The translations under genes were made by a program, and so were the position numbers. Source: an uncultured Bifidobacteriaceae bacterium (GTDB taxonomy: Bacteria > Acidobacteriota > Vicinamibacteria > Vicinamibacterales > JAMQPK01). From it: DNA of 64,000 nt. Of the stretch, positions 11,171 through 64,000 are shown one piece after another. How positions within the stretch are numbered: position 1 is the stretch's first letter; every line of letters begins with the position of its first letter. Below the pieces are notes generated by a model. It was not told the origin of the DNA, made no database searches, and was given only the letters and a program-made list of their open reading frames with translations. The stretch is from assembly GCA_964356125.1 (NCBI GenBank), contig CAYHHH010000001.1, forward strand, positions 1,197 to 65,196, in the 5' to 3' direction.

Positions 11171-11946
11171 CAGAAGGACTCGCCTGGCAACAGGAAGCCG
11201 AACGTCCGCATCACAAATCGCCCTTGCGTGCCGTTGACGAACTCGATGAACGACATCGACGCGGCCGGTTGTTTCGTGCGGGAGAGGACGGCCGCCATCT
11301 GCTCGATCGGACGGTGAAGACGCGCGTCGACCAGCTTCCACTGCAGGTCGGAGGCATCCGCGACCGATCTCGCGACGATGCCGGCCTGAGCGGATCCGCT
11401 GCGGACGAACTGGACGGCCTGCTGGACGTTCTCGCCGAACACCAGCTTCGGTTCGAGCGTCTCCCAGAGCCCCGCGGCCTCGACCGCGTGTTTCGCCGCG
11501 AGCCCATACGGCGCGTGCTGCGGGTTCGCGATCGCGATGCGCGCGATGCGCGCGTCTGCCAGATCCTTGAGATCGTTGACCCGGATGCCGCTCGACGTGA
11601 GCGTGACCGTCGCGATGCGGCCGCGTGCGTAGATCGCGTGCGTCTGGCGCAGCGTCAGGTTCTCGGTCGCGAGATCGGTGATGAAGCTTTCGTTCGCGGC
11701 GAAGAACACGTCGGCGGGCGCGCCGTTTCGAATCTGCTGGGCGAGCGTGCCGGTCGAGCCGACCACGAGCGTCACGTCGGTCCGCGTCTTTCGCTCGAAC
11801 CGCGGAACGATCTGCGCGAACGCGGGACCGAGGTCGGACGCGGCAAACACGATCAGCGGCGCGGGCGGCGGCTCTTGGGCGCCCCCCGGCACTCCGTGGG
11901 CAGTCCAGAGTCCAAAGACCAAAGTCCACAACCAGGCAAAACGCAT
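11170..11946 (-). CDS. modA: molybdate ABC transporter substrate-binding protein
   Basis: LIVFAASDL...VGSTGTLAQQIRNGAPADVFFAAN is typical of ModA. ATG at 11946 chosen (MRFAWLWTLVFGLWTAHG signal peptide). The signal peptide is partly encoded by a heptamer array. Confidence 0.85.
   Translation of the reverse strand: MRFAWLWTLVFGLWTAHGVPGGAQEPPPAPLIVFAASDLGPAFAQIVPRFERKTRTDVTLVVGSTGTLAQQIRNGAPADVFFAANESFITDLATENLTLRQTHAIYARGRIATVTLTSSGIRVNDLKDLADARIARIAIANPQHAPYGLAAKHAVEAAGLWETLEPKLVFGENVQQAVQFVRSGSAQAGIVARSVADASDLQWKLVDARLHRPIEQMAAVLSRTKQPAASMSFIEFVNGTQGRFVMRTFGFLLPGESF
11901..11933 (+). repeat. heptamer array, GTCCAGA/GTCCAAA family (inside the modA signal-peptide region)
   Basis: CAGTCCAGAGTCCAAAGACCAAAGTCCACAACC. 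Confidence 0.7.
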
Positions 11947-11950
11947 AGGC

Positions 11951-11998
11951 GATTTGATATGATACCATTCGATTTTCGAAGTCAATTCAATCGATTTT
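11951..11998. promoter_or_regulatory. AT-rich divergent control region between modA and the HTH-TOBE regulator gene
   Basis: GATTTGATATGATACCATTCGATTTTCGAAGTCAATTCAATCGATTTT is strikingly AT-rich for this genome. It has repeated TCGATTTT and a TTCGA..TCGAA dyad. Confidence 0.45.
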
Positions 11999-12007
11999 GG
12001 AGGCAGG

Positions 12008-12457
12008 ATGGCGAACGACTTGGTCCGGGTGCGCGACGCCGCCCGCCGCCTCGGCGTCAGCTACGCGACGCTGAAACAGTGGATCTACAAAGGGACGCTG
12101 CGCACGGTCCAGACCGCCGGCGGCCACCATCGGATATCGGAATCGGAGCTCGAGCGCTTTCTGGCGCGCAAGGGTCCCGCCTCCGCGTCCGCGACGCTTC
12201 GGCGAGGCAGGCCTCGGTCCAAGAAGGTTCCCACTGTCCTCGTGGCCCTGAGCGGCCGCAATCAGCTTCGCGGCGTCGTCGAAGAGGTGCGCACCGACGG
12301 CCTCATGGCGCAGATCCGCCTGCGCATCGGCGACCAGACCCTGACCGCCATCATCACGCGCGACGCGATCGACGCGCTGCGCCTGAAGCGCGGGGATGAC
12401 GCGATGGCAGTCATTAAATCGACCGAGGTCATGATCGCGAAAGAAGCTAAACGCTGA
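12008..12457 (+). CDS. HTH (MerR/excisionase-type) DNA-binding protein fused to a TOBE/Mop molybdate-binding domain
   Basis: N-terminal LVRVRDAARRLGVSYATLKQWIYKG...HHRISESELERF. C-terminal SGRNQLRGVVEEV...IKSTEVMI TOBE fold. Divergent from modABC. Confidence 0.8.
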   Translation: MANDLVRVRDAARRLGVSYATLKQWIYKGTLRTVQTAGGHHRISESELERFLARKGPASASATLRRGRPRSKKVPTVLVALSGRNQLRGVVEEVRTDGLMAQIRLRIGDQTLTAIITRDAIDALRLKRGDDAMAVIKSTEVMIAKEAKR

Positions 12458-12542
12458 AAGTCCAGAGTCCAGAGTCCAGAGTCCAGAGTCCAGAGTCCAG
12501 AGTCCAGAGTCCAAAGTCCAAAGTCCAAAGTCCAAAGTCCGG
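12457..12542 (+). repeat. heptamer tandem array (TCCAGAG)x7 (TCCAAAG)x4
   Basis: Read directly. 11 perfect 7-nt units starting right at the stop of the HTH-TOBE gene. Confidence 0.95.
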
Positions 12543-12571
12543 ATGGCATCTCGAATGCCCTGACGCTGGGC

Positions 12572-12952
12572 ATGAAAGCTAAGAAACTCGAGGATTTGCA
12601 GGTATATAAGAAAGCGCTTAAAGGGATCGCTGAAGTTTCTCCACTACTGGGGCGCCTCACAGTACGCAGAGATTTCAAACTGCACGATCAACTGTCAGAG
12701 TCTTCCGGCAATATCCCTGGGCATATTGCGGAGGGATTCGGACAGCTCACCGACAAACACTTCGCTCACTATTTAGGAATCGCGCGTGGCTCGGCCCAGG
12801 AAACGCGCGGGCACCTCGCGACGGCTCTGGCAAAGAAACACATTTCAGCCGAGGACGAGGCGCGCGTTTCGGGACTCTATCGCGACCTCTGCAATATGCT
12901 CACGGCCTTTATTGAGTACCTTCGCGGTTCGGATTTCCGCGACCGATGGTAA
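12572..12952 (+). CDS. four-helix-bundle protein (23S rRNA intervening-sequence protein family)
   Basis: LEDLQVYKKAL...SSGNIPGHIAEGFG...FAHYLGIARGSAQETRGHL matches the family pattern. 126 aa. Flanked by inverted heptamer arrays. Confidence 0.85.
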   Translation: MKAKKLEDLQVYKKALKGIAEVSPLLGRLTVRRDFKLHDQLSESSGNIPGHIAEGFGQLTDKHFAHYLGIARGSAQETRGHLATALAKKHISAEDEARVSGLYRDLCNMLTAFIEYLRGSDFRDRW

Positions 12953-12979
12953 CCGTGGCGAGAAACCTCGACCCTCGTA

Positions 12980-13044
12980 CTCTGGCCTCTGGCCTTTTGG
13001 CCTTTTGGACTCTGGACTCTCGACTTTGGACTTTGGACTTTGCC
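12980..13044 (-). repeat. heptamer array, reverse-complement orientation of 12457-12542
   Basis: CTCTGGC CTCTGGC CTTTTGG ... CTCTGGA CTCTCGA CTTTGGA CTTTGGA CTTTG. Confidence 0.9.
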
Positions 13045-13055
13045 CCATTCACGCC

Positions 13056-13071
13056 ACGTAAGCACTTACGT
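13056..13071. promoter_or_regulatory. 16-bp perfect palindrome, candidate activator (UAS) site
   Basis: ACGTAAG-CA-CTTACGT, about 65 bp upstream of the sigma-54-type promoter. Confidence 0.3.
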
Positions 13072-13122
13072 AAACGGTAAGGTCCGCACGCGATCTCCTC
13101 AATAAATCCCGCACCCTTTCAC

Positions 13123-13138
13123 TGGTCCAGCCATTGCA
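13123..13138 (+). promoter_or_regulatory. sigma-54-type promoter (-24 TGG / -12 TTGCA) upstream of the CHRD gene
   Basis: TGGTCCAGCCATTGCA has GG-N10-GC spacing. Predicted +1 near 13149, SD 13158-13164, ATG 13170. Confidence 0.5.
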
Positions 13139-13169
13139 CTGGTGTCTATCCTTCCTTGGAGGAGACCAC

Positions 13170-13700
13170 ATGAAACGTCTTGCGATGCTCGCTCTGGTTC
13201 TTGCGTTCGGAATTTCCTGCGACGATTCACCGACCAGTCCCTCGGCCAATCCGAACGTCGCCCGGTTCACCGCGATTCTGCTGCCGTCGAACGAGGTGCC
13301 GGCTGTCACCAACGCCGACGCGTCGGCCAGCGGGACGATGCAGATGACGATGACCGTGACGCGCGACGCGGCCAACAACATCACCGGCGCGACGTACGAC
13401 TTCACCCTCCACGTCACCGGCTTTCCGGCGAACACGAGGCTGACCGGCGCGCATATCCATGCCGCAGCGGCCGGTACGAATTCGGGCGTCGTGGTTGGGG
13501 TTGCGTTAACGGCGGATGAGGCGGCCCTCGCGACAGGACAGTCCACGATCGCGAAGACAGGGCTCACGGCGAATGTCGCTGCCAATGCCGCCCCGGTGGC
13601 TCAGAACATCTTCAACAATCCCGGCGGTAACTATTTCAACATCCACACCAGCGTCAACGGCGGCGGCGCGATTCGCGGGCAACTCGTAAAAGTGGAATAG
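13170..13700 (+). CDS. CHRD domain-containing lipoprotein
   Basis: ATG at 13170 after GGAGGAG. Lipobox LAFGISC. CHRD-type motifs LLPSNEVP...GAHIHAAAAGTNSGVV...IHTSVNGGGAIRGQL. Confidence 0.8.
   Translation: MKRLAMLALVLAFGISCDDSPTSPSANPNVARFTAILLPSNEVPAVTNADASASGTMQMTMTVTRDAANNITGATYDFTLHVTGFPANTRLTGAHIHAAAAGTNSGVVVGVALTADEAALATGQSTIAKTGLTANVAANAAPVAQNIFNNPGGNYFNIHTSVNGGGAIRGQLVKVE

Positions 13701-14080: not shown

Positions 14081-14084
<4 letters not shown>
13979..14084. repeat. three consecutive perfect-stem hairpins downstream of the sigma-54 regulator gene
   Basis: A 10-bp stem at 13979-14004 (+CTAC), an 11-bp stem at 14016-14040, and a 9-bp stem at 14054-14079 preceded by GTACGTAG and followed by GCTAC. 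Confidence 0.75.
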
Positions 14085-15444
<1,360 letters not shown>

Positions 15445-15448
<4 letters not shown>

Positions 15449-17286
15449 GCGTGTCCCTCCGGGAGATCGATACGAATTTCCGTTCCCTCGCCGGGACGGC
15501 TCTCGAGCGCGATCGTGCCTCCCATGCCCTCGATGATGTTCTTCGCGATCGCCAGGCCCAGGCCCGAGCCGGTGCGCGTCGTCGTGAAGTACGGATCGAA
15601 GACGCGCGGCAGATCTTCGGGCTTCACCCCGACGCCGCGATCGCGCACGGTGATGGCGAACGCATTAGGCGCACGGTGGGTCGTCATGGTGATGTCTTCG
15701 ACAGGGTTGAAACCCTGTGCCACCGCAACTGGAGAGCCCTGCGGTACCGGAACGGCCGCTCGCGCGGCGACGGCGTGGCGCGCATTCGTCAGGATGTTCA
15801 CGAGCGCGGTGCGCAGCCGCTCGGCGTCCGTGACGACGGTCCCGAGCGCGGGATCGGGTTGGATGGTCACATGCATCTCCTGGTGGCCGGCGCGCGTCGC
15901 TTCCTCGGCATCGGCGCACAAGGCGTTGACGTTGGCTGGCGCGTAGTCGAAGCGGATCGGCCGCGCGAAGTCGAGCACGTCGTTGACAACCCGGTTGAGC
16001 CGCGCGACTTCTTCGTCCACGTCGGTCAGCGCCTGCCGCATATCGTCGCGGCTCACCCGCTCGCTGGCGAGCGTCCGCAGCGACGCCTTGATGATCATCA
16101 GGGGATTGCGAATCTCGTGCGCGATGACGGTCGACAACCGCCCGAGCGCCGACAGCCGCTCGCGCTGCGCCGCCTCGCGCTGGAAGCGCGCAATCGAGTC
16201 GGTGAGCGTGTTGAACGTCGCCGCGAGCAGCTTGGCATCTTCGTCGTCCCAGCTCGCCGCGCGGCTCAACGCGATCTTCCGCGTCAGATCTCCGGTTGCC
16301 GACATTTCGCGCATCACGTCTGTAATCGTCGCCAGCGGACGCGTAATCGTCCGGGCCACAGCGTAGCTGAGAATCGTCGCCGCGAGCACGGCGATCATCG
16401 CCACGACGCCGAGGCCCGTGTGGATGGCGTCGAGGAACCGCAGCCGCTCCGTGCGCGAGCGGAGCAGCAGCACGCTCGGCGCGCGCTCGCCGCCCGAAGA
16501 GGCGGCCTGCGGCGTGAGCGGCCGCTTCAGCGCGACGTACTCGCCGGTGGCGAGCGCGATCGTCTGCACGCTACCGGTGTTCAGCAGCGACACAAGCTGT
16601 GCGCGATCGCCGGCCGGCAGCGTCGACGCGCGGATATGCCCGTCGACGGCGAACGCGATGTCGCTTTCCGTCGCCCGTTTGAATTGCGCCGCGAGCGCGT
16701 TGTCGAGACGGAAGCCGACGGAGAGCGTGCCCATGATTTCCGGTCGGTCCTGGTAGATGCTGACGGGCACGGCCATCATCTGCAGCACGCCGTCGGCCTG
16801 GGGCCAGAAGCCGACCGCCTCGCGCCCCGCGAGCGCCTCTTGAATTTCGGGCAGGGTGGCGATCGCGCCTTCCGCGATGTCGAGCGCGCCGGCTTCTGCG
16901 AGCACGCGCCCGGTTTTGTCCGTCAGCACGAGCAGCGCGGCGTCCAGTTGCTCCCGATATTCGCCGGCGAGCGGTTGCACGGTGGGCGGGTCGCCGGTAT
17001 CGACCGCCGCCTTCAACCGTGGGGCGTCCGCGACGAGGCGCGCCATGACCGTCAGCGTACGCAGGCGCGTCGCGCATTGCTCGTCGACGAGTGTGCCCGC
17101 TTCGAGCAGCCCGCGCTGCAGTTCTGCCTCGGCCTCGCGCGTCATGGTGCGGCTGACGAAATACACGGCCGCGCCGATCGACACCACGGCCAGCGCCGCG
17201 CTGGCCAGGAAAATCCGGTTGGTGAGCGATCCAAGAATCGTCACGCGGTCATCGCAGGGCGAAATCCGCTTCCACCGCGCCGCCAT
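15445..17286 (-). CDS. sensor histidine kinase (2 TM, large periplasmic domain, HAMP, HisKA, HATPase)
   Basis: H-box VIAHEIRNPL, N-box NILTNARHA, G-boxes DRGVGV and GSGLGLAI. 4-nt overlap with the regulator gene. Start is either ATG 17286 or GTG 17244. Confidence 0.85.
15700..15724 (-). repeat. REP-like hairpin inside the histidine-kinase CDS
   Basis: GACAGGGT-TGAA-ACCCTGTGCCACC belongs to the same family as 4080-4104. In frame, encoding VAVAQGFNPV. Confidence 0.7.
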
Positions 17287-17905
17287 CCTCAGGGATGACG
17301 ATCGGCCTCGACTCGCGGATGGCGCCTTCGTTCCACGCGACCAGCGTGTAGCGGCCCGGCGGGACGCGGCCAATCTGATATCGGCCGTCGGCCGACGTTA
17401 CCGCGAAATATCGATGGTTGAAGACGAGGATGAACGCGCTCATGTGCGAATGGATTTCGCAGAACACACGAACGATGCCCGGGCGATCGAAGCGCACCGG
17501 CTTCGAGCGTCCCGTCGCGTACCGGCCGAGATCGAAGCGCGGTGCGCGCAGCGAGAACACGTTGTGATAGGTGTTGTCGCTGTTCGGGAAATCCACGGTC
17601 GTCCCGACCGTAATCGCCAGCACATGCGGCACGAACGTCTCGTTCCGCTGATCCATCGTCGCGCGCTGCGGCTCCAGATCGGGGAACGCGAGGGCGGGCG
17701 CCGATTCGAGATAGACGACCGAGCGGCGAAGATCCGGCACATCGCGGCTCGCGTGCATCCCGAGGCCGGTCACGTTGGGGCGCCGCTCGATGGTGGGCGG
17801 CGTGCGCCGCACGTCGACGCGGCCGCGGATGACGCCCAGTGGCGCTTGCGCAGACACGTGCTCTGACAGGGCCAAGAGCAGAGAGCAAAGAGCCAGGTGC
17901 TTCAC
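17249..17905 (-). CDS. cupredoxin (type-1 copper site) protein with C-terminal carboxypeptidase-regulatory-like domain
   Basis: GTG start in a GTGA overlap with the upstream stop, followed by a signal peptide. Candidate ligand set is HNVF...CEIHSHM (His, Cys-x2-His-x2-Met). C-terminal YQIGRVPPGRYTLVAW beta-sandwich. Confidence 0.7.
   Translation of the reverse strand: MKHLALCSLLLALSEHVSAQAPLGVIRGRVDVRRTPPTIERRPNVTGLGMHASRDVPDLRRSVVYLESAPALAFPDLEPQRATMDQRNETFVPHVLAITVGTTVDFPNSDNTYHNVFSLRAPRFDLGRYATGRSKPVRFDRPGIVRVFCEIHSHMSAFILVFNHRYFAVTSADGRYQIGRVPPGRYTLVAWNEGAIRESRPIVIPEDGGAVEADFALR
17875..17893. repeat. AGAGCAG/AGAGCAA heptamer segment (inside the cupredoxin signal peptide)
   Basis: 19-nt AGAGCAGAGAGCAAAGAGC, identical to 61842-61860. 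Confidence 0.8.
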
Positions 17906-19098
17906 AACCAGAAGTGCAGCTGCGCGGCGAACAGGCCGAGGCTCGTGATCCGTCCGCCATCGCGCCAGTTGTGTTGATACGTGCCCTTCGCGAGCAGGTT
18001 TCGGCGGATGTAATAGCCGACGCCCGTCTCGAGGCGCGTGACCGGCGCATCCCACGAACGAGTTTCAAACGACGCCGCCAACTCGCTGAACGTGAGGCGA
18101 TCGATGCGGCTCGCGACGAACACGCCTGGGGAGATCTTGTACCGCCCTTCGAGGAACGCGCTCGTCGCGTCGAGCGGGCGCGTGAGCGTCGGCACCTGCC
18201 ACCGGTTCCAGATCAGCTCCCCGCGCAGCATCCAGTGATCGCGCGAGTACTCCGCGTCGGCGCCGAGCGCCTGCTGCGTGGATCCCGCCGTGCCGGCCAG
18301 CAGCGTCGCGGTTGCAAGCGCCGCGTCGGCGACATACACGCCTCGCGCCGCGGACCCGCCGACGGACAGGGCGGGTGTCGGCCGCCAGGCGACCCGGCCG
18401 GCGATCTGCTTCCCGCCGTTGTTGTCGCGCGTCCGCGGGTCGGACGTGGTGCCGTTGGTGAGCGCCGCGCTCGCATTGAACGTCTCCGGCCCGACGCGCA
18501 CCTGCACGCCGGTATCCCAGCGAAACGCCGTCATCAGCGGCATGCCGGGCGCAATCTCGAGCGATCCGATGGGATAGCTCGGCCGCCATCCCCGCGCCCG
18601 CATGCGCAGCACATCATCCGTCGATGCGGGAAGGGCATCAGGGCGAACCGCGGTCAGGTACTGGTAGGCGAGCGGATAGCCAATCAGCGGATTGCCCGCG
18701 CCGTACTCACGCCGTGCGAACGCGCCGAAGGTCGGCGGAATGCGCCCGGCCTGAATGTCGATCGGTCGATCGCGCCACGGACGGACGCGCAGGTAGAGGG
18801 CATACGGTTTGACGGTGTCGCCGTTCTCGCTGCGAATCTCGGTGAGGATCGACACGCGATCGGTAAGCCGCACGTCCGCGTTGAGCGCGACGCGGAAGAG
18901 CCGCAGCGCGTTGTGCTCGTAGTCGGTGTAGTTGAACCACGCGCCCTCGGTGTCGTCCTGCGGCGTCAGCGAGATCGACACGTCGGCGCCGATGACGATC
19001 ATGCCGTTGGCGAGCGACACGGGGCCGGACGGGAGATCCTGCGCGCGCGCTGCAGTCGCCGCGCAGAGGCAGAGAAGGGCCAGACACGCCGGTCTCAT
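17902..19098 (-). CDS. hypothetical outer-membrane beta-barrel (porin-like) protein
   Basis: Signal peptide MRPACLALLCLCAATAARAQ. Alternating amphipathic strands and an aromatic-rich C-terminus ...AQLHFWL. No family recognised. Confidence 0.6.
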   Translation of the reverse strand: MRPACLALLCLCAATAARAQDLPSGPVSLANGMIVIGADVSISLTPQDDTEGAWFNYTDYEHNALRLFRVALNADVRLTDRVSILTEIRSENGDTVKPYALYLRVRPWRDRPIDIQAGRIPPTFGAFARREYGAGNPLIGYPLAYQYLTAVRPDALPASTDDVLRMRARGWRPSYPIGSLEIAPGMPLMTAFRWDTGVQVRVGPETFNASAALTNGTTSDPRTRDNNGGKQIAGRVAWRPTPALSVGGSAARGVYVADAALATATLLAGTAGSTQQALGADAEYSRDHWMLRGELIWNRWQVPTLTRPLDATSAFLEGRYKISPGVFVASRIDRLTFSELAASFETRSWDAPVTRLETGVGYYIRRNLLAKGTYQHNWRDGGRITSLGLFAAQLHFWL

Positions 19099-19123
19099 GA
19101 GTATCCCCATACTATAATCGGAT

Positions 19124-19429: not shown

Positions 19430-19966
19430 ATGGGACTCATCGATCATAAGTTCGAAGACAATTTCATCACGACCAACGTCGATCGCATCCTGACGTGGGC
19501 GCGTGAGAACTCGCTGTGGCCGATGGGCTTCGGCCTCGCGTGCTGCGCCATCGAGATGATGGCGGCGTCAGCCTCGCGCTTCGACATCTCGCGGTTCGGC
19601 GCTGAAGTGTTCCGCGCGTCGCCGCGGCAATCGGACCTGCTGATCGTCGCCGGCACCGTGACGAAGAAGATGGCTCCCGTGCTGCGGCGTCTCTACGATC
19701 AGATGCCGGAGCCGAAATGGGTCATCTCCATGGGCAGCTGCTCGAACGCCGGCGGACCGTTCCCGACCTACAGCGTGCTCCAGGGGGTCGACAAGATCGT
19801 GCCGGTCGACGTCTACGTGTCCGGATGCCCGCCGCGCCCCGAAGCGCTGCTCTACGGGCTGATGCGGCTGCAGGACAAGATTCGCAAAGAGAACACGGTG
19901 CTCCGCAAGGAGCGCGTCATCATGTCGGGAGACTCCGAACCGACGCTCGTGGGTGACCGGTCATGA
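19430..19966 (+). CDS. nuoB: NADH-quinone oxidoreductase subunit B
   Basis: [20 protein letters not shown] and [15 protein letters not shown] supply the four N2-cluster cysteines. Confidence 0.9.
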
Positions 19967-20424
19967 TGAAGCTGCTGCGCATGATCTTTCTCGTCGATCT
20001 GGTCAAGGGGCTGTGGCTCACGTTGAAGTACACGCCGCAGCCGGCCTTTACGTTCCAGTATCCGGCCGAGCGGCGCCCCGTCGCGCCGAGGTTCCGCGGC
20101 GTGCTGCGCCTGCAGGTCGAGCCCGAGTCGGGCGCCCAGACGTGCATCGTCTGCGACCAGTGCGCGAAGGCGTGCCCGGACGATCTCATCGCGCTCGGCG
20201 GACATCGCGAGCCCGGACAGAAAATCAAAATTCTGGATTACTTCGATTTCAACCTCTCACGCTGCAGCTTCTGCGGCCTCTGCGCCGAGGTTTGCCCGAC
20301 GAAACCGATCAAAGCGCTCGTCATGAGTGAGGATTACGAATTGGGTACCTACAGCCGCGAAACGCAGATTCTGCGTATCGACGAGATGTATGACGGGGTG
20401 CCGATAGAACAGTACACGCGCTAA
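19963..20424 (+). CDS. nuoI: NADH-quinone oxidoreductase subunit I-like 2x[4Fe-4S] protein
   Basis: [12 protein letters not shown] and [12 protein letters not shown] motifs in a NuoI-like N-terminal context. ATGA overlap with nuoB. Confidence 0.85.
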
Positions 20425-20431: not shown

Positions 20432-20508
20432 GTAGGTTCCAGGTTCCTGTTCCGGTTCCTGTTCGAACCCGGAACTTGGAACTGGAACCCGGAACCCGAA
20501 TCCCCTAC
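20432..20508. repeat. palindromic short-period array, GGTTCC/GGAACC family
   Basis: GTAGGTTCCAGGTTCCTGTTCCGGTTCCTGTTC | GAACCCGGAACTTGGAACTGGAACCCGGAACCC..CTAC, between nuoI and the TPR-protease gene. Confidence 0.9.
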
Positions 20509-20543: not shown

Positions 20544-22073
20544 ATGTACTCAGTCCTCAGGCTGGTTCCCATCGCCGCGGCGGTTGTGGCGGTGGTCGCG
20601 CTCTCACCGGCCGCGTCGGCGATTTCCCCGGAAACCGCGTATGTCCAGCTTCAGCTCGCCAAGCTGCTGTTTACGGACGGCCGCTACACCGAAGCGTTCA
20701 ACGCGTTCGAGCAGGTCAAGGGTCACGATGATGCGCGCATCAAGCGCGAGGCGCTGACCGGCAGCGTCAAGTCGTCGCTGCGCCTCGGGGATTTCACGCA
20801 CGCGTACGCCGATGGCCAGATGCTGGCGCGAAGCTCTCCCGCGAACCCTGAGTCGCTGGCGAACTATGCTGACGCGCTGTGGGCCGTCGGGTTGTTCGAG
20901 GACGCTGAAAAGAAATTCGAGGACTCGCTGGCGATTCAGAAGGACAACGGCCGCGCGCTGCACGGTCTCGCGCGCAGCCTCGCCGCGCGCAACCGGCTGG
21001 ATGACGCGTTGAGCACCGCGCAGGCGGCGCTCAATAAGGATCCGCGCGACGCCGAGTTCCATCACACCGTTGGATCGATCTACGAGCGGATGCGGCGTTA
21101 CGAAGAGGCTGCGAACGCCTACTCGAGCTATATCAACCTGCTGCCGAACAAGGACCGCAGCGCGAAAGCGGCGTGGGCGCGTGCGGAAGTGCGCTTCCTG
21201 CGCGCGTTCGGGTCGCGGCCGCCCCTCAACATCGAGCCGGGTGCGGCCGGCCGGCTCCACACCATGCCGTTCCGGGTGCTGAACGAGAAGATCATCGTCA
21301 AGGTACGGGTCAACCGCGGCCCGCAAATGGACTTCGTGCTCGACACCGGATCTGAGCAGGCGGTCATCTCGCGTGAGACCGCCGCGCGCATGGGCATCCG
21401 TCCCATCGTCAACATTCTGAGCGCGGGCGTCGGCGATCTCGGCGTGCGCGAGCTCGAGCTCGCGCGGCTCGACGAGCTGGAAATCGGATCGCTCAAAGTC
21501 CAGAACGTGCCGACGATCATCAAGAACCCGCCGCTCGTCGGCCTGCCGACGCGCGAGATGGAAAGCTTCTCGCCGCTGGCGCTGGGCATGTCGGTCATCA
21601 TCGACTACGACCGGCAGGAGCTCGTCATGGGTGCCTCGCTGCCGACCGAAACGGCCGACATCGAGCTGCCGTTGCGGATGCACCGCCTCGCGATGGTGCC
21701 GGGACAGGTGGGGGGCGGATCGGCGAGCTTCATCCTTGACACCGGCGGCCAGGTCATCTCCATCAGCACCGACACGGCGAGCGGTCTCGAGCGCGGCGAG
21801 ATGCGGAACATTCCGCTGAAGGTGTACGGCGCGTCCGGGTGGGACCGTGACGCCTTCCTCATGCCGGGCGTCAACCTCGCCTTCACGAACAAGATCGAAT
21901 ACAAGAACCTGTCGGTCGTGGTGCTGAACCTGCGCGCGCCGAGCGTGCTGCTCGGCTTCAGGCTGGGCGGGATTGTCGGGTACAAGTTCCTGAGCCGCTA
22001 CCGGGTCGCGATCAACCTCGACAAGAGCATCGTGCAGCTGCAGACGCGGGCTCAGGCGAAACGGACGAACTAA
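20544..22073 (+). CDS. TPR-repeat protein with two retropepsin-like aspartyl-protease domains
   Basis: Signal peptide, then TPR-like helices in the N-terminal half. Two DTG motifs (VLDTGSEQAVIS and FILDTGGQVISIS). Confidence 0.7.
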   Translation: MYSVLRLVPIAAAVVAVVALSPAASAISPETAYVQLQLAKLLFTDGRYTEAFNAFEQVKGHDDARIKREALTGSVKSSLRLGDFTHAYADGQMLARSSPANPESLANYADALWAVGLFEDAEKKFEDSLAIQKDNGRALHGLARSLAARNRLDDALSTAQAALNKDPRDAEFHHTVGSIYERMRRYEEAANAYSSYINLLPNKDRSAKAAWARAEVRFLRAFGSRPPLNIEPGAAGRLHTMPFRVLNEKIIVKVRVNRGPQMDFVLDTGSEQAVISRETAARMGIRPIVNILSAGVGDLGVRELELARLDELEIGSLKVQNVPTIIKNPPLVGLPTREMESFSPLALGMSVIIDYDRQELVMGASLPTETADIELPLRMHRLAMVPGQVGGGSASFILDTGGQVISISTDTASGLERGEMRNIPLKVYGASGWDRDAFLMPGVNLAFTNKIEYKNLSVVVLNLRAPSVLLGFRLGGIVGYKFLSRYRVAINLDKSIVQLQTRAQAKRTN

Positions 22074-22112
22074 CTAACTACTGATCTAGGGATCTACTGA
22101 TCTATAGATCTC
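22071..22112. repeat. 8-nt-period array, GATCTA family
   Basis: TAACTAAC TACTGATC TAGGGATC TACTGATC TATAGATC. Covers both convergent stop codons. 22075-22096 is identical to 28456-28477. Confidence 0.85.
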
Positions 22113-22579
22113 GCGCGGCGCGCGAGATGCTCTGCGCGCCGCACCTCGGCCGCAGCCTGCTGCCGCTTCTCTTCATCGCTCACGACCAGGAGCGGCGGAA
22201 TCTCCGCTCGCGTGCCCTGCTTTTCCAGCGTGACGAACGTCAGATACGCGCGGCTCGTCAGCTGCCGTCGTCCCGTGAGCGCCTCCTCGGAGAACACCGT
22301 CACCTCGACCTCCAGCGACGTCCTGAACACCGCCGTCACGCGTGCCTTCAGCAGGATGAAGTCGCCGACCCTGATCGGATTCAGAAACTCGAGGCCGTCG
22401 ACCGCCGCCGTGACGACCAGTTCATGCGCGTGGCGGAACGCCGCGATCGCGGCCGCGATGTCGATGAGGTGCATGACGGCGCCTCCGAGCATGAACCCCA
22501 TCGGATTCGCGTCATTGGGCAGCACGACCTCGACCATCTCGGTGGCGGAGGCTGACGGCGGTTTCGGCTCGAGCGGCAT
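22094..22579 (-). CDS. acyl-CoA thioesterase (hotdog fold)
   Basis: Internal ATG at 22579. VLPNDANPMGFMLGGAVMHLID...TAAVDGLEFLNPIRVGD matches the pattern. Confidence 0.85.
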   Translation of the reverse strand: MPLEPKPPSASATEMVEVVLPNDANPMGFMLGGAVMHLIDIAAAIAAFRHAHELVVTAAVDGLEFLNPIRVGDFILLKARVTAVFRTSLEVEVTVFSEEALTGRRQLTSRAYLTFVTLEKQGTRAEIPPLLVVSDEEKRQQAAAEVRRAEHLARRARSIDQ

Positions 22580-22593
22580 GCGGAAGAGGATAC

Positions 22594-22827
22594 TCAGCTC
22601 GTGCAGCGATCGTCGAGAAAAGCTTTCAGCCGCAGTCGCAGCTCTTCTGGCAGGTCTTCTTCGTTGAGCGACTGCAGCAGCGCCACCGTCGATCGGAAAC
22701 TGCCGACGAATTCGCTGCACTCCGAGCATCCGCCGAGATGTTGTTCGAGATCGCTGCGCACATCCGCCGGCAGGCGGCCGTCGATGTAATCGGAAAGGAG
22801 GGAGACGATGCGAGGACAATCGGGCAT
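22594..22827 (-). CDS. zf-HC2 (anti-sigma-factor-type zinc finger) protein, soluble, 77 aa
   Basis: C-x23-H-x3-C-x2-C pattern (CPRIV...LEQHLGGCSECSEF). No TM segment and no adjacent sigma gene on this strand. Confidence 0.65.
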   Translation of the reverse strand: MPDCPRIVSLLSDYIDGRLPADVRSDLEQHLGGCSECSEFVGSFRSTVALLQSLNEEDLPEELRLRLKAFLDDRCTS

Positions 22828-22832: not shown

Positions 22833-22908
22833 GTAAGTAGAAAGTAAGAAGTAAGACGTGAAAAGTAAAGGCTTACTTTCTACTTTCCACTTCTGACTTT
22901 CTACTTAC
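22833..22908. repeat. palindromic heptamer array, AGTAAGA family
   Basis: GTAAGTAGAAAGTAAGAAGTAAGACGTGAAAAGTAAAG | GCTTACTTTCTACTTTCCACTTCTGACTTTCTACTTAC, between two co-directional genes. Confidence 0.9.
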
Positions 22909-22917: not shown

Positions 22918-25900
22918 CTAAAAGTCGTACCCAATCCACGCGGTGAAGCGCGCCTTCCGGAATTCCGCGCTGTTGCCGTAGAGGTAGTTCTCCCAGTCCT
23001 TGTTGAACAGGGTGCGGTAGGACCAGTCGAAGTGGACCGGGAAGCCGAGCGCGAAGGTCTCGAGCCCGATGCCGTACGAGGCGCGCGCGTCCGCGAGGCG
23101 GAATCCCGAGATGCGCTGACTCGGCCGGGTGAGCACGCCCCGGTCGTCGGTCACGGGCGGCGTGATGAAGTCCGTCTTGTCGAAGATCTTGAACGGTTGC
23201 CCTTCGAATCCCGTTCCGCCGACGTTGAAGAAGAAGACGCCACGGATACCGCCGAGGATGCCGATCGGCGTCGCCATCGCGTGGATGAGCGGGAAACGGA
23301 GCTCGGAATTCAGGTAGAACCCTTTGTGGCCGAGGAACTCGCGGTACTCGTAGCCGCGCATTTCGGAGTTGCCGCCGAAGAACGTGTATCCGGGCGCCGT
23401 GCCCCAGCTCTTGAAGCCGTACGCCCGCACTGCGAATACGCCGTTGGCGCCAATCCGCGTGTAGTGGCGGGCGTCGGCATCGAGTGTCTGGCGCGACAGC
23501 GACTTGCCGACCTTCGGCGCGCCCTCGTACGACAGCCGCATCGTGCTGCCCGACAGCGGCCCGTACTCGCGGAAGATCGTCGTCTCCTGAATGAAGGCGA
23601 CGCCGAGCGGCAGCATCATGCCGCGATTGAAGAGCTGCGTGCCGAACTCCTCTTGCTGGTACCTGTCGGCTTCGGCCTGCAGGGTCGGATCGGCGTACTC
23701 TTCGGCGAAGTGCACGAGGCCGCCGGAGAGCTCGACGCGGCGATAGGTGCTGAGGGGATAGATGCCGAACATCGATCCGCCGCGCACGGTCTGGGTCGCG
23801 AGTGCATCCTGACGGCTGATGTACGGTGCAATCGCCGGATCGTACAAATACTGCGACAGCTGCCCGTAGAAGAACTGGGTCTGCGAATAGCCCTGCAGCG
23901 CGAACTGGAAGCGCCGCGAAAGGTTCAAGTACGAGAACGACAGCGTCTTGTACTGCTGTACCGACGACGCATACATGCTGAACTGCTGGTCGCCGAGCAC
24001 GTCGGTGAACGACACCATCGATCCGCCGAACACGTCGCCACCGCTCGTGACGCCGACGTTCACCGGCGGCCGGCCGTCGAGGAACATCTTGTCGAACCGC
24101 CCCTTCTTCGACTTGTTCTCGGCGACGAGCGTGTGCTGCAGCGGCGCCTGGAAGTCGGTGATGGGCCCGGGCGTGCCGAAGTCGGCCGACGCAGCCGTAT
24201 GCAGCGGTTCCTTGAGATCGTAGGTGTGCAGCGTGTAACCGCCCTTGTAGTAGCCGACGAACGCGAGTCGCGGTGCCGCCCCGTCTTTCGACAGCACGAC
24301 TGGCGACAGCACGCCGCCGAGCGCGTCGGTGTACTGCCGCAGCTCGCCGTTCTTCAGGCTGAGCGACCACAGGTTGAAGATGTTGCCGTTACGCGCCACG
24401 TCGGGCGTCAGCGGCGTCGCCGGATCGGTCGCCGTCGACGCGAAGACGATCGTGTCGGCGTTGATGAACTTCGCCGACGCTTCGTCCTGCGTGCCGAAGG
24501 TCAGCTGCGTCTTCTTCCCATCCGCATCGAGCCGGAACAGCTTCTGCGAACCGCTGACGCGCGCCATGTAGACGATGAAGCTGCCGTCGGGCGAGTGGAT
24601 GGGCGCGTAATCCGCGAAATTGTCGTTCGTCAGGTTCGTGATGTCGCCGGTGTTGATATCGAGCTTGAAGATGTCGCCGGTGGCGCTGCGCAGGCCGCTG
24701 AAGAGCACCGTGCTGCCGTCGGGCGAGATGTTCGGCGATTCCGGGTTGTCGACGCTCTCGAGCGGGAACCGGTGCTCGATCTTGCCGGTGAGCACGTTCT
24801 GGATAATCAGCGTCTTGTGCTTCTCGTTGCGCACGAAGTAGGCGAGGCGATCGCCCACGGGCGACCACGACATCCACGGCACCATGTTGCTGAGGCTCGG
24901 CTGCGCGATGTACTCGAACCCGCGGTCCATGTCGAAGCCGGACGTGAGATTCTTCATGACCGCGCCGTCCTTCGTCGAGACGAGGATGATGTCGAGCTCC
25001 TGGTCGCGGCGGTTGCCGGTCATGACGGCGATGAGATCGCCCGACGGCGACGGCTCGATCGAGATCGAGCTCGTGTAGGGCGACTTTTCCGGATCGGGTG
25101 AGAGGTCCTGGCCGTAGTCGGCCGGCCGCTCCTTGTCGCGGAACGCCTTGAAGCGGTCTTTCAGATATTTCTCGAACTGCTGGTCGAACTCGCGCGCCGT
25201 CATCTGGAACGCTTCTTCGTACGGGCTCGACCCGCCGCCGATGGCGCTCTTGCGCAGCGAGAAGAGGAACTGCCGGACGCCGTCCTTGCCCCAGCGCGCT
25301 TCGATGAACTCGTAGAGCGCATGGCCGAGGTTATAGACCAGACGCGGACTGCCGAAGTCGCCGTAGCCCTCCATCTGGCTCATGCGCGGGATGATGTCGG
25401 CGACCGCGGCGTCGCGCACCGTCATGAGATCGAGCGGATCCCAGATGCCGCGCTCGTATTCCGCGCCCCCTTCATGCACCCACAACGGGATGTTGCGGCG
25501 GAGCAGCGACATGGGGATGAAGTCGTACTGGAAGACGTGCGTCAGCTCGTGCACGATCAGCCCGTAGAGCAGGTCGGACGGCAGATCGATCGGCAGCACC
25601 ATGCGGTTGCGCTCGCCTTCGGCAAACGCGAGCACCCCTTCCTGTGCGGCGCCGGGCGCGATGTTCTGCTGCTCGAACTCGCTGTGCGTCTTGAAGATGA
25701 TGAGCGGCACGCGCTGGTTGAGGTCGTGCCGGAGGTCGGAGCTGACCTGCTGATACGCGCTCTCGGCGTAGCTGGCGACCCGCTCGAGATGCCGCTCGTT
25801 CTCCGGGTAGTAATAGATCTCGAAGTGGTCGGTCTTGTAGATGTGCCACTCGAACTGGTCGTAGTGGATCTGGTTCTTGCCGTAATACGGCGCCATCTGC

Positions 25901-26058: not shown

Positions 26059-26147
26059 ACGAGCACCTCGTGAAATTAATGGACCGGCCACTGATGAATT
26101 CCCGCGATCTTACTGTGAAGACACAGGTATCGCAACGATTCCGAACG

Positions 26148-51142: not shown

Positions 51143-51164
51143 GATAAAATATCGGCCGGGCTCC

Positions 51165-51557: not shown

Positions 51558-51561
51558 GCGC

Positions 51562-51587
51562 CTTCTGATCTTTTGATCTTCTGTTTC
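51562..51587 (+). repeat. single-arm 8-nt-period array, CTTCTGAT family
   Basis: CTTCTGAT CTTTTGAT CTTCTGTTTC, just after the response-regulator stop. Confidence 0.75.
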
Positions 51588-52644: not shown

Positions 52645-53487
52645 GTGCGTCATAAACATCCTGTCATTCTCGGCTGCGCGATATTGGTGCTCGCGCTTTC
52701 AGCCTTTCCCGCAGAAGCCCAACGGGGTCGTCACGGCGGCGGTGGTGGTGGTGGTGGTCGCGTCACCGTCATCAGGCACTCGCCGCTGCTGTGGGGCGGT
52801 GGCTTCTACGGCGGCGTCTACAATCCGTACTACTTCGGCTTCGGCCAGTGGTATCCGTACCCGCATCCGGGTTTCGGATACCCGCCGGGCATGTATCACA
52901 ACGATGGCGCGGTCGCGCTGCGCCTGCAGGTGACGCCGCGAGACGCGTCCGTGTTCGTCGACGGCTACGCCGCGGGCGTGGTCGACGATTACGACGGCAT
53001 CTTTCAGCGGCTGCGTCTCGTGCCGGGGCCGCATGAAATCGTGATCTATCATCCGAGCCACCGCACGCTGCGACAGAACATCTATTACAACCCTGGTTCG
53101 ACGCACACGATCCGTCACACGCTCGATCGGCTGATGCCGGGCGATATCGCCGAGCCGCAGCCGGTGCCGCGCGCGATGCCGGCGTATCCGGGAATGCCCG
53201 GCGCACCGGGTATGCCGCCCGGCGTTGAATCAGGTCGCGGTCCTGACGTGGGAAGCCCTGACGAGCGCGCCGGTACGCTTGCGCTGCGCGTGCAGCCGGG
53301 CGACGCGACCGTGCTGGTCGATGGCGAGCCGTGGCGGGGACCGCAGACGCAGGATCGGATTGTGATTCAGCTCGCCGAAGGGACACACCGGGTTCGCATC
53401 GAAAAATCCGGATTTCAGACGTTCGCCGTGGACGTCGACGTGCGCGCGGGGGAAACAACCAGCTTCAACGTCAGTCTGCTTCCTTAA
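52645..53487 (+). CDS. PEGA domain-containing secreted protein
   Basis: GTG 52645 lies 9 nt after GGAGG (52631-52635) and gives the signal peptide VRHKHPVILGCAILVLALSAFPAEAQ. Two PEGA-like modules (LQVTPRDASVFVDGY.., LRVQPGDATVLVDGE..). Confidence 0.75.
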   Translation: MRHKHPVILGCAILVLALSAFPAEAQRGRHGGGGGGGGRVTVIRHSPLLWGGGFYGGVYNPYYFGFGQWYPYPHPGFGYPPGMYHNDGAVALRLQVTPRDASVFVDGYAAGVVDDYDGIFQRLRLVPGPHEIVIYHPSHRTLRQNIYYNPGSTHTIRHTLDRLMPGDIAEPQPVPRAMPAYPGMPGAPGMPPGVESGRGPDVGSPDERAGTLALRVQPGDATVLVDGEPWRGPQTQDRIVIQLAEGTHRVRIEKSGFQTFAVDVDVRAGETTSFNVSLLP

Positions 53488-53541
53488 CAGAAGATCAGGA
53501 GATCGGAAGAATTTCTTTTCTTCTGATCTTTTATCCTTCTG
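53488..53541. repeat. palindromic 8-nt-period array, AGAAGATC / CTTCTGAT family
   Basis: CAGAAGAT CAGGAGAT CGGAAGAA | TTTCTTTT CTTCTGAT CTTTTATC CTTCTG, immediately after the PEGA stop. Confidence 0.85.
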
Positions 53542-61363: not shown

Positions 61364-61372
61364 GATACCCCC

Positions 61373-61834
61373 ATGCCCATCACTCTGACGGTCAACGGAA
61401 GCAAGCGGTCCTTCGATGGCGATCCGGAGATGCCGCTCTTGTGGTACCTCCGCGATGAGCTCGGACTCACAGGCACCAAATACGGATGCGGCGCGGGGCT
61501 GTGCGGATCGTGCACCGTCCATCGCGACGGAAAAGCCGTACGCTCGTGCCAGACGCCGATGAAAGCGCTGGCCGGCGGACAGATCACGACGATCGAAGGA
61601 TTGAGCCCGGACGGATCGCATCCGGTGCAGCAGGCGTGGATGCAGGCCAACGTGCCGCAGTGCGGGTACTGTCAATCCGGGCAGATCATGCAGGCGGTGG
61701 CATTTCTCAGAACCAGTCCGAAGCCGTCCGATCAGCAGATCGACACGGCCATGTCCGGCAACATCTGCCGTTGCGGCACCTACCAGCGCATCCGCGAAGC
61801 GATTAAGTTGGCCGCTGACGGGAGGCGCGCATGA
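61373..61834 (+). CDS. (2Fe-2S)-binding small subunit of a xanthine-dehydrogenase-family Mo hydroxylase (IorA-like)
   Basis: [12 protein letters not shown] and [10 protein letters not shown]...CRCGTY cluster motifs. Confidence 0.9.
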
Positions 61835-64000
61835 AGGGCATAGAGCAGAGAGCAAAGAGCACGCTCGGCCCGATCGAGAACGTGACGCGGCGGCACTTTC
61901 TCGGCGGCGTGTTGTCCGCCGGTGCGTTCGTGCTCGCGGCGCGCGTGATGCCCGAGGAGTTGTTCGCGCAGACGCCTGCGGCGCGTTCGCTGCTGAGTCA
62001 GGCCGAAAAATCGGCGTTGCGTCCGAGCATCTATCTGGGCATCGAGCCTGACGGCACGGTGTACATCGTGACGCACCGCTCGGAGATGGGCACGGGCATC
62101 AGAACGACGCTGCCGATCATTGCGGCCGATGAGCTCGACGCCGATTGGAGCAAGGTCAAGATCGAGCAGGGCATCGGCGACGTGCGGTACGGCGATCAGA
62201 ACACCGACGGCTCGAAGTCGATCCGCGATTTCTACGACGCGTTCCGTCTGGCGGGCGCGTCCGCGAGGACGATGCTCGTCTCGGCGGCGGCGGCGCAGTG
62301 GGGGGTGCCGGTATCAGAGTGCGCGGCGCGCGTGCACGAGGTCGTGCACGGGCCGAGCAATCGCCGGTTGGGTTACGGCGCGCTCGCGACCGCCGCGGGG
62401 AAGCTGCCCGTGCCTTCCGCGGCGCAAGTCCGGCTGAAGACCAGGAACGAGTGGCGATTCATCGGCAAGGACTTTCGCGCGTACGACCTGTCCGACATCG
62501 TGGCGGGCAAAGCGATGTTCGGCATGGATACGACGCGCGAGGGCATGTTGTACGCGTCGATCGAGCGTCCTCCCGTCCTTGGCGCCACGGTTCGATCGAT
62601 CGACGCCGCACAGGCATTGAAAGTGCCTGGCGTGCGGCAGACGGCGACGATCGATACCTACAAGCCGCCGCTGATGTTTCAAGCAGTCGGCGGTGTTGCG
62701 GTGCTCGGCGACAGCACGTGGGCCGTCATGCAGGGGCGGAGGCGGCTGACGGTGGACTGGGATCTCGGCCCGAACGCCGCGTTCGACTCGGAAGCGTTCA
62801 AGAAAGAGCTGATCGCGACGGTGCACCAGCCGCAGAAAGTGGTGCGCGCGGTCGGCGACGTCGACGCCGAGTTTGCGAAAGGCGGCAAGACGGTTGAAGC
62901 GACCTATTACACGCCGCTCCTCGCGCACGCGTCGATGGAGCCGCCCGTTGCCGTGGCCGACTTCCGCGACAACAAGGTGACCATCTGGGCGTCCGTGCAG
63001 AATCCGCAGGCGACGCAGGACACGGCTGCCGCAGCGCTCGGCATCCCCAAAGAAGACGTGACGGTGCACGTCACGCTGCTGGGCGGTGGCTTCGGGCGCA
63101 AGTCGAAGCCGGATTTCGCGGCGGAAGCGGCCGTGCTCTCGAAGAAAGCCGGGAAGCCCGTCAAGGTCGTCTGGACGCGCGAAGACGATCTGAAGTTCGA
63201 CTTCTATCATTCGACGGCCGCGGTGTATCACAAGGCCGTGCTTGACGGCAGCGGCAAGCCGTCAGCGTGGCTGGCGCGCTCGGCGTTTCCGCCGATCGCG
63301 TCGACGTTCGAGCACGGCGCGCGATACGCGCTCGATCTCGAGAACGGCATGGGGCTGGTCGATCTGCCGTACGAGCTGGCGAATCATCAGGTTGAAAACG
63401 GGCCGGCGAGCGCACACGTCCGCATCGGATGGTTCCGCGCGGTGGCGAACAACTATCACGTGTTCGCATCGGGCAGCTTCGTCGACGAACTGGCGCGCGC
63501 GGCGGGCCGCGATCCGCTCGAGTACCTGCTCGACCTGATCGGTCCGGGCCGCGTCATCGATTTGAAGCCGCAGCTCAGGGGCGCAGATTACTGGAACTAC
63601 GGCGCGCCGCTCGACAAATATCCGATCGACTCGCGGCGGCTGCGCCGCGTGCTCGAGGTAGCGGGGGAGCGGTCGGGGTGGGGCAAGCGCAAGGCCGGGG
63701 GCGGCTGGGGCATGGGCGTGTACGCGCACCGCAGCTTCAACACGTACGTCGCGTCGGTCGTCGAGGTCGAAGTCGACAAGGCTGGCCGCGTCCGGGTGCC
63801 GCGCGTCGTGCAGGTGTTCGACGCGGGTCTCGTGGTGAATCCGGCGGCGGCGAAGCAGCAGTTCGAGGGCGCGGCCGTGATGGGAGTCGGGCTGGCGATG
63901 CTCGGCGAGATCTCCGCTGTCGGCGGACGCGTGCAGCAGACCAACTTCAACAATTTCCAGGTCGCCCGCATGAACAGCGCGCCCGTGCAGGTGGACGTCC
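61831..64000 (+). CDS. molybdopterin-binding large subunit of a xanthine-dehydrogenase-family hydroxylase (IorB-like), 3' end outside the window
   Basis: Absent from the ORF track because no stop is reached. ATGA overlap with the small subunit. My own translation reads [20 protein letters not shown] (Tat motif)..[49 protein letters not shown]. The frame is open to nt 64000. Confidence 0.85.
61842..61860. repeat. AGAGCAG/AGAGCAA heptamer segment (inside the IorB-like N-terminus)
   Basis: Identical 19-mer to 17875-17893. Confidence 0.8.

Follow-up and report, generated by a model that had tools for sequence, protein, structure and literature searches.

Introduction

Heptamer-type intergenic tandem repeats have been published for Xanthomonas, Beggiatoaceae, cyanobacteria, Bacteroidetes and Geobacter. 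Here we analyse arrays of this kind in a 64,000-nt stretch of DNA from a Vicinamibacterales genome (GenBank assembly GCA_964356125.1, contig CAYHHH010000001.1, positions 1,197 to 65,196), hereafter the window, together with the genes that they flank, which encode a four-helix-bundle protein (PF05635 / TIGR02436, '23S rRNA IVS protein', Avd-like; hereafter IVP). A first-pass annotation, made from the letters of the window alone, had held that the arrays belong to no described repeat class. The published repeats contradict this, and our verdict is that the arrays belong to a known kind of repeat, of which they form a multi-family variant, and that they have a gene partner not remarked on before.

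The cyanobacterial STRR repeats reportedly go back to Mazel et al. in 1990. TAACTGA repeats occur in Beggiatoaceae, cyanobacteria and Bacteroidetes (MacGregor 2015, PMC4679880). Like the arrays of the window, STRR and TAACTGA repeats are tandem heptamers with several families per genome, an intergenic position and a patchy lineage distribution, and units with stop triplets end open reading frames (ORFs) in all frames; unlike the window arrays, they have been described mostly in direct orientation upstream of start codons, seldom form inverted pairs and have no known associated gene. What defines the LSSR/STRR class, namely head-to-tail units of 6–9 nt in at least three copies that are over-represented and mainly intergenic, is found in the window.

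The Xanthomonas repeat GGGAATC is present at ~186 sites per genome, with 70–75 inverted pairs, near the stop codon of the 5′ ORF (Rehm et al. 2015, PMC4692102). Its Nostoc counterpart is GGGGAYT, and a G-quadruplex was proposed for both genera (PMC4692102). The window arrays resemble it in their tandem 7-nt units, in a mostly intergenic position close to the stop of the 5′ neighbour, in inverted pairs (six compact palindromes and two split pairs near 3′ ends) and in a length and sequence that vary between close species. Xanthomonas has one family per genome, however, versus at least nine in the window alone, and PMC4692102 makes no mention of a four-helix-bundle gene. Moreover, most window families lack the G-tracts of the Xanthomonas type, and therefore the G-quadruplex reading does not carry over.

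In Geobacter metallireducens, paired opposite-strand sites consist of 3–5 tandem hepta-, octa- or nonanucleotides in 3–4 classes (GTTGCTYN ×4, TCTCCGTS[Y] ×3, MTYCTGA ×5; Aklujkar et al. 2009, PMC2700814). Several families per genome, periods of 7–9 nt, mostly opposite-strand pairs at variable distance and poorly conserved outer units are common to these sites and ours; insertion sequences adjoin the Geobacter sites, which, unlike in the present analysis, were read as 'global regulator' sites of IHF/HU.

Contiguous heptad operators are known for the omega repressor/ParB of pSM19035, and TRAP acts on spaced GAG repeats. Heptad operators share with the window arrays the 7-nt unit, a direct or inverted arrangement, cooperative sites and a conserved core beside free positions, but the protein folds differ and there are few sites per replicon, not hundreds. 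The REP/REPIN–RAYT systems are similar in having short repeats at gene ends, several families, each flanking its own cognate gene in inverted orientation, non-autonomous copies in vast excess and no target duplications. REPs are single 20–40-nt imperfect palindromes whose 5′ GTAG is conserved, whereas the arms in the window are tandem and GTAG is literal at 2 sites only; the flanked gene here encodes a ~125-aa helical bundle instead of a HUH nuclease, and a RAYT (Y1_Tnp) gene flanked by repeats was found neither among the 63 window ORFs scanned nor in the gene tables of related loci. In the 23S rRNA intervening sequences of Leptospira, Coxiella and bacteria of the candidate phyla radiation, a PF05635 ORF stands between stem-forming inverted repeats, as it does in the window, and the distribution is sporadic and apparently horizontal; the window cassettes differ in lying outside rRNA, in having stems of tandem 7–9-nt units and in that most copies are ORF-less.

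Results

PF05635 genes between paired arrays

Both ORFs enclosed by paired arrays in the window are PF05635 genes, IVP1 being intact and IVP2 frameshifted (Table 1). The first-pass annotation had listed the arrays correctly but overlooked these genes, which are the main lead to the nature of the arrays. An AlphaFold2 model of IVP1 built from 31 sequences (pLDDT 93) matches 2GSC (XCC0516; TM 0.83), 2RLD (BT_0352) and Avd (4DWL) at TM 0.75–0.83, and the chains of these three entries are lettered up to E in the structure match list. IVP2 represents a second clade of the PF05635 family, and its ortholog in the relative L008 is intact (TIGR02436, 46 bits). No rRNA was found in the window and both cassettes lie between protein genes, so that they are not 23S rRNA insertions; likewise, neither the window nor the surroundings of 10 IVP loci yielded a reverse transcriptase domain of a diversity-generating retroelement (DGR).

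Each clade carries its own upstream feature. A sigma-54-like motif (tGGcAy-N5-rTGC) is kept in 13 loci of the IVP1 clade, L084–L101 among them, and because it ends 13 nt before the start codon in the window, it suggests a predicted IVP1 transcript that is sigma-54-dependent and nearly leaderless. In the IVP2 clade, the hairpin TGCAGTTTCCGC / GCGGAAACTGCA overlaps the start of the gene and is kept in L105 and L106. An NtrC-type sigma-54 activator (14081–15448, minus strand) and its sensor kinase (15445–17373) are encoded near IVP1, and likewise in L100 and L101. Between the downstream IVP1 array and the CHRD gene lies a further palindrome, ACGTAAGCACTTACGT (13055–13075), which is kept in L098 and L101 and could be an operator of the CHRD gene.

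Association of IVP genes with arrays across genomes

IVP relatives in metagenome contigs were searched with a single IVP protein as query, and flanking was scored by a strict rule (the same 5-mer at least three times on each flank). Among 35 IVP loci from Vicinamibacterales, Chitinophagaceae, soil metagenomes and Xanthomonas, 27 had arrays of one core on both flanks (23 inverted, 4 direct), versus 12 of 403 control genes in array-rich loci (3%; Fisher p ~9e-27). Nine IVP genes of Chitinophagaceae have arrays on both sides, seven of them inserted between leuA and leuB, and the same holds for soil-metagenome relatives of IVP1, the long contigs L099–L101 and the IVP2 relatives L105–L107. The association extends to a cultured organism, Xanthomonas campestris: accB and accC enclose the ortholog of the crystallised XCC0516 (PDB 2GSC, five chains), which has GGGAATC ×4–5, the heptamer catalogued in PMC4692102, upstream and the inverse downstream.

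The unit varies with the protein. Paralogs within one genome have different units (AGTCCAG and GATCTANN in the window, AACYTGN and GATTTSW in L067, AGGCARAG and AACCGNT in L064), while similar IVPs have the same unit in different contexts (AGTCCAG in the window, L084, L085, L088, L099 and L100; GATCTANN in the window, L008, L105 and L106). The share of common array 5-mers rose from 4% at <30% protein identity to 68% at >70%, the AGTC core being kept down to 42% identity, and the Mantel correlation between unit and protein clade (r = 0.46) was reached by none of 2000 permutations. Thus, IVP genes are associated with arrays, and the unit co-varies with the protein clade.

The cassettes are found in different gene contexts and in several states of decay. 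In L098, which is the locus of the window in a different strain, the IVP gene is reduced to its first 20 codons between AGTCCAR arrays, and L088 has another internal IVP deletion between arrays, so that intermediates with an internally deleted gene between intact arrays are seen. At the site 28445–29006, relatives form a series of intact IVP, relic, bare palindrome, one arm and nothing; in Bacteroidota, L067 has the IVP gene and L073 the same arrays without it. ORF-less palindromes and single arms far exceed the gene-bearing copies of the same families. The IVP gene of L105 is inverted relative to the same flanking genes, which would fit a recombination between inverted arrays. In L100, a second, degraded IVP fragment (12631–12804) lies between AGTCCA-type arrays (12401–13008), 2 kb from the intact copy, and looks like a local duplication of the cassette.

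We consider it reasonably probable, at roughly 0.6, that these heptamer-type (6–9 nt) intergenic tandem repeats live in a REP/RAYT-like partnership with the IVP protein, in which both binding and spread are what we infer. Several observations weigh against this partnership. The IVP gene of L014 has no arrays, and the ortholog in L101 has direct instead of inverted ones, and therefore a hairpin is not obligatory. The IVP loci are not independent, several being orthologs, and the co-variation could be plain co-inheritance of linked DNA. There are ~220 arrays versus 5–6 IVP genes in ~450 kb, and no cognate IVP was found for seven array families of the window. Filled and empty sites of relatives show no consistent target-site duplication or clean insertion signature. 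To our knowledge the IVP fold has no catalytic activity, and therefore the fold alone does not account for copying. Avd shows no sequence preference in its binding of nucleic acid, and our literature search gave no report of a DNA- or RNA-binding specificity for a PF05635 protein.

Number and origin of the arrays

Arrays were called with Tandem Repeats Finder (TRF) and by direct reading of the sequence (period 6–9, at least three copies), and they are present at every coordinate that the first-pass annotation had named. It had proposed shuffled sequence as a check: the window holds 22 such arrays versus 1.7 ± 1.1 (maximum 4) in 100 dinucleotide shuffles, and 14 with a score of at least 40 versus 0.09, so that they exceed chance. 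Their density is 3–9 per 10 kb in related loci and mostly 0–2 in other taxa. The contiguous 6–9-nt units do not match the architecture of CRISPR (24–48-nt repeats, unique spacers). That the arrays are an assembly artefact of low-complexity reads, as the annotation had also considered, is a notion to which we give practically no credence: short-read contigs do break off inside arrays, but arrays of the same kind are present at the same junctions in 15 independent, mostly long-read metagenome-assembled genomes (MAGs) and in several assemblies from short reads, and they also occur in Xanthomonas genomes from culture.

The idea of several unit families with one architecture was borne out, and so was that of copying rather than independent slippage. 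The identical runs reported at 22075–22096 and 28456–28477 (22 nt) and at 17875–17893 and 61842–61860 (19 nt) are as described; the two CCAATCC loci also share a run, whose length is not 17 but 19 nt (34298–34316 and 39096–39114). Because the shared stretches keep the order of variant units at distant loci, the members of a family are copies by descent, and the two GGGGTGA/GGGGCAA palindromes also share the asymmetry of their arms. Uniform blocks of units (AGTCCAG ×7, then AGTCCAA ×4) show that slippage occurs as well.

Shape of the arrays and structure of the unit

The arrays had been called mostly palindromes, which is an overstatement, as only about half are hairpins. Compact hairpins are found at 20432, 22833, 33250, 40919, 49715 and 53488 (n = 6; fold z-scores −4.8 to −8.3), inverted pairs split around an ORF at 12459/12979 and 28456/28969 (n = 2), and single arms at 11901, 17875, 22071, 30080, 39091, 41537, 51562 and 61842 (n = 8). 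The supposed palindrome at 34265 does not fold (z = −0.1) and is an GATTGGNA array abutting an unrelated ATCCCNA array. A frame of GTAG...CTAC, said to be recurrent, is present letter for letter at 20432 and 22833 alone; what the arrays share more generally is an outer edge of TAG/CTA, in many cases serving as stop codon too (49713–49715, 30125–30127, 22094–22096).

The unit consists of a conserved core of 4–6 nt and 1–3 variable positions (e.g., GATCTA+NN, CGCACC+NNN, ATCCC+N+A). In hairpins the cores are paired and the spacers often unpaired, with 89% versus 60% complementary matches by consensus comparison in a small, partly mis-paired set, so that core complementarity without spacer complementarity is suggestive only. 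This core-plus-spacer periodicity resembles protein sites, and the arrays might then be bound by a nucleoid protein or global regulator of the host (IHF/HU), or else be G-quadruplex elements, with the IVP uninvolved; both ideas have been published for similar repeats (PMC2700814, PMC4692102). We judge either very unlikely here: at least nine different cores in one genome are a misfit for one host protein, the turnover of families at orthologous sites described below argues against fixed regulatory sites, and tracts of three or four G are confined to the GGGGTGA/GGGGCAA and GGGATTR families, the AGTCCAG, GATCTANN, AGTAAGA, AGAAGATC, AGAGCAA and GGTTCC families having none.

Arrays at gene ends

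As the first-pass annotation had seen, arrays sit at gene ends and touch stop codons, beginning 0–10 nt from stops or overlapping them; the exceptions are 11901 and 61842, in 5′ coding ends, and 33250, inside the long 3′ tail of a LeuA-like ORF. Related sequence totalling 447 kb had 197 array sites, of which 133 were outside crude gene calls that take up 79% of it; among intergenic regions, an array was held by 39% of the convergent, 26% of the tandem and 13% of the divergent ones. In L012 and L031, where the site 28445–29006 is empty, the two convergent stops share the letters CTAG; the place of the elements is exactly between the stops. Hairpin-plus-T-run terminators were no commoner than in shuffles in a scan of window 11000–53000, and none coincides with an array palindrome; the genome therefore may not rely on canonical intrinsic terminators.

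The bias to gene 3′ ends and the few canonical terminators speak in favour of some 3′-end role. One could accordingly regard the arrays as slippage-born simple-sequence repeats kept as 3′-end hairpins (terminators, protectors or RNase III sites), with IVP genes as passengers in the loops. Slippage does occur, six palindromes fold strongly, convergent gaps are favoured over divergent ones, another 3′ structure could serve where T-run terminators are not above shuffles, and IVP genes in rRNA sit in stems cleaved by RNase III (10.1101/2024.02.27.582315). This explanation is unlikely, though, since half of the sites are single arms that are unable to fold, cores are kept while spacers are often unpaired, and palindromes lie within probable operons. 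Nor is there a bias to the sense strand, which folds better in only 6 of 11 relatives at 22833, and the G·U-favoured strand at 33250 is antisense to both flanking genes. Together with the direct arrays of L101, the single arms, unpaired spacers and missing strand bias count against a pure RNA-hairpin role. Furthermore, an order of variant units is common to distant loci, and the unit tracks the IVP clade across contexts, the latter being something that a mere passenger would not lead one to expect.

Selection for a hairpin in the sense RNA was also considered for the GGGGTGA family from its G·U asymmetry and was rejected, as codon-position substitution counts put 33312–33860 coding on the plus strand. 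The gene after the LeuA-like ORF (frame of 33279–33749) is on the plus strand, rather than the longer minus-strand ORF. The LeuA-like ORF itself (31715–33376) reads through the palindrome 33249–33310, a segment whose length differences among relatives are mostly divisible by 3, as though a translated tail tolerated the array. In L009 (18406–18627) and other relatives, nonamer arrays (GCACCCATC)n are present at the site of window 39030–39130, in frame behind a signal peptide, with (Ala-Pro-Ile)n as the predicted product; two arrays of the window, 11902–11928 and 1789–1812, are likewise in N-terminal signal-peptide regions. Two RRM-domain genes with CGG/CCG tracts (Gly/Arg-rich tails; 33896–34258 and 41008–41382) are each directly followed by an array.

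Turnover at orthologous sites

The GC content is ~64% across the window, and its genes are acidobacterial housekeeping genes (TonB/OMP barrels with CarboxypepD_reg domains, modABC, a LeuA-like synthase, Fe-S oxidoreductases). Relatives of the LeuA-like protein with 85–94% identity are present in 15 Vicinamibacterales MAGs, mostly long-read assemblies, and gene order is kept over ~20 kb between these and the window. Rfam and tRNA scans of the window gave no rRNA, tRNA or any Rfam family. The segment 43400–46600 has a lower GC content (0.59) and small unknown or accessory ORFs (DUF2442, DUF6442, an HTH_3 regulator), and may be acquired DNA.

Comparison of orthologous sites, which the first-pass annotation had recommended, showed other families or nothing in the 15 syntenic relatives, with varying unit numbers. 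At the site 22833, AGTAAGA (window, L014) is replaced by AGAATCT (L004, L007, L012, L054), GGCAGAT (L009, L011), an GGGATCTA palindrome (L010), plain GC hairpins (L016, L031) or nothing (L008). AGTCCAR units number 11.7 in the window versus ~5 at the orthologous locus of L098, and in L054, L013 and L011 the arrays of one family lie within or directly beside those of another. Palindromes also lie inside probable operons, the flanking genes being 14 nt apart in a relative without the palindrome. At 34297/34298, relatives carry a DUF72 gene and others (0.8–4 kb) between the GATTGGNA and ATCCCNA arrays; their absence from the window therefore points to a probable gene loss at this array junction.

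Hairpins at gene ends that are present or absent among relatives, nested insertions, outer edges that often read (G)TAG...CTA(C) and the absence of target-site duplications would all suit REP/REPIN-like elements, or MITEs (miniature inverted-repeat transposable elements), moved by a transposase encoded elsewhere (RAYT-type HUH), with the IVP as cargo. For MITEs, inverted arms are present and filled and empty sites show no consistent target duplication. We find this reading decidedly improbable. No transposase, integrase, reverse transcriptase or RAYT was found among the 63 window ORFs or in the gene tables of the related loci L099–L107, REPs are single imperfect palindromes and not tandem units, and stop codons that overlap the TAG edges explain these in part. 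RAYTs were linked to REPs by the criterion of a consistently flanked gene, and in the present case this gene is the IVP gene.

Table 1. Arrays, IVP genes and associated motifs in the window (positions in nt; TRF, Tandem Repeats Finder; reading, direct reading of the sequence)
Feature	Position	Strand	Location	Evidence and remarks
AGTCCAR ×3.9, single arm	11902–11928		inside 5′ signal-peptide coding end of ModA-like gene 11170–11946(−)	TRF, reading; 16 nt identical to 12501–12516
AGTCCAG/AGTCCAA ×11.7, upstream array of IVP cassette 1	12459–12540	+	starts 2 nt past TGA stop of TOBE/HTH gene 12008–12457	TRF, reading
TGGCAT-N5-ATGC, sigma-54 −24/−12-like (GG-N10-GC)	12544–12558	+	13 nt before IVP1 ATG	
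IVP1, intact four-helix-bundle gene	12572–12952	+		Pfam E = 1.3e-20, 74 bits (cut-off 33.8); TIGR02436 66 bits (cut-off 24)
Inverse array GGACTYT (reverse complement of ARAGTCC), downstream arm of cassette 1	12979–13042	−	~90 nt upstream of CHRD gene 13134–13700	TRF, reading
AGAGCAA ×3, single arm	17873–17893		8 nt beyond stop 17902–17904 of minus-strand gene 17902–19110	TRF, reading
GGTTCC(N) palindrome	20435–20498		10 nt past TAA stop of Fer4 gene 19963–20424	dG −48.9, z = −6.0
GATCTANN ×4–5, single arm	22075–22111	+	fills gap between convergent stops 22071–22073 (+) and 22094–22096 (−)	
AGTAAGA palindrome	22836–22906		between co-directional minus-strand genes, start of 22094–22819 and stop of 22918–26091	z = −5.8
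GATCTANN ×5, upstream array of IVP cassette 2	28456–28497	+	begins just past TAA stop 28440–28442	
Leader hairpin TGCAGTTTCCGC / GCGGAAACTGCA, 12 bp, IVP2 clade	28502–28537	+		reading
IVP2, frameshifted relic	28518–28904	+		profile positions 1–72 match, E = 1.4e-17; Pfam E = 0.01
Inverse GATCTANN array, downstream arm of cassette 2	28969–29006	−	ends ~10 nt short of stop of Exo_endo_phos gene 29017–29745(−)	TRF, reading
CGCACCNNA ×6.7, single arm	30084–30143		between two co-directional minus-strand genes	TRF, reading; provides TAG stop (30125–30127) of upstream gene
GGGGCAA/GGGGTGA palindrome	33249–33310		inside 3′ tail of LeuA-like ORF	inverted copy of palindrome at 49714
GATTGGNA ×4	34266–34297			left palindrome arm, partner missing in window; no hairpin
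ATCCCNA ×4, arm of separate family (GGGATTR)	34298–34325			reading, comparison with relatives
CCYAATC ×4.4, single arm	39092–39122		ends 6 nt before stop of gene 39129–39716(−)	TRF, reading
GGTGCG(NNN) nonamer palindrome	40920–41003		fills gap from stop of RRM gene 41008–41382(−) to start of 40217–40915(−)	dG −64, z = −8.3
GGTTCC(N), single arm	41539–41570			TRF, reading
GGGGTGA/GGGGCAA palindrome	49714–49770		first unit shares TAG stop 49713–49715 of DUF3810 gene	
CTTCTGAT ×2.8, single arm	51562–51583		5 nt past stop of response-regulator gene 50994–51557	TRF, reading
AGAAGATC palindrome	53488–53540		directly after TAA stop 53485–53487 of PEGA-domain gene	z = −7.0
AGAGCAA ×4	61834–61861		junction of Fer2_2 gene (stop 61832–61834) and MoCoBD gene	TRF, reading

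Discussion

In the partnership that we favour, arrays with a core motif of their own enclose each IVP clade, in most cases one array upstream and its inverse downstream, and the periodic core, one per 7–9 nt, would be what the subunits of a cognate IVP oligomer recognise on DNA or RNA. Periodic protein binding of this sort would agree with a core-plus-spacer period that is present on both strands and with a flanked gene for a homolog of a pentameric nucleic-acid binder. Arms may lengthen and shorten by slippage within the arm, new copies may land at gene ends or within existing arrays, and the arrays may then promote inversion and deletion of the intervening DNA. Tentatively, and with some doubt, we extend this to the possibility that PF05635 pentamers read tandem 7–9-nt repeats sequence-specifically and that each paralog maintains, spreads or uses its own family, a nuclease-free REPIN/RAYT-like symbiosis in Acidobacteriota, Bacteroidota, Xanthomonadales and probably cyanobacteria and Geobacter.

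Arrays of this kind have practical consequences, as they break short-read assemblies and, because ORFs read through them, mislead gene callers; in soil Acidobacteriota they are also markers of places where inversion and gene loss occur. For decades, heptamer-type repeats have been recorded with neither a protein partner nor a function that is agreed on. PF05635, on the other side, is widespread, with two crystal structures and no known role outside DGRs, and was still called functionally uncharacterised in 2024 (10.1101/2024.02.27.582315). No paper linking the two was found in our literature search. Here the logic of RAYT and REP, a gene flanked by cognate repeats, is applied to a protein that is not a nuclease, and the link makes both questions testable at the bench in Xanthomonas campestris, where XCC0516 has been crystallised and the GGGAATC sites are mapped. 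If the tentative claim of specific reading were true, three things would be explained together: the STRR/heptamer repeats, on record since 1990; what the '23S rRNA IVS protein', on record since 1993, does; and where the DGR accessory protein Avd comes from.

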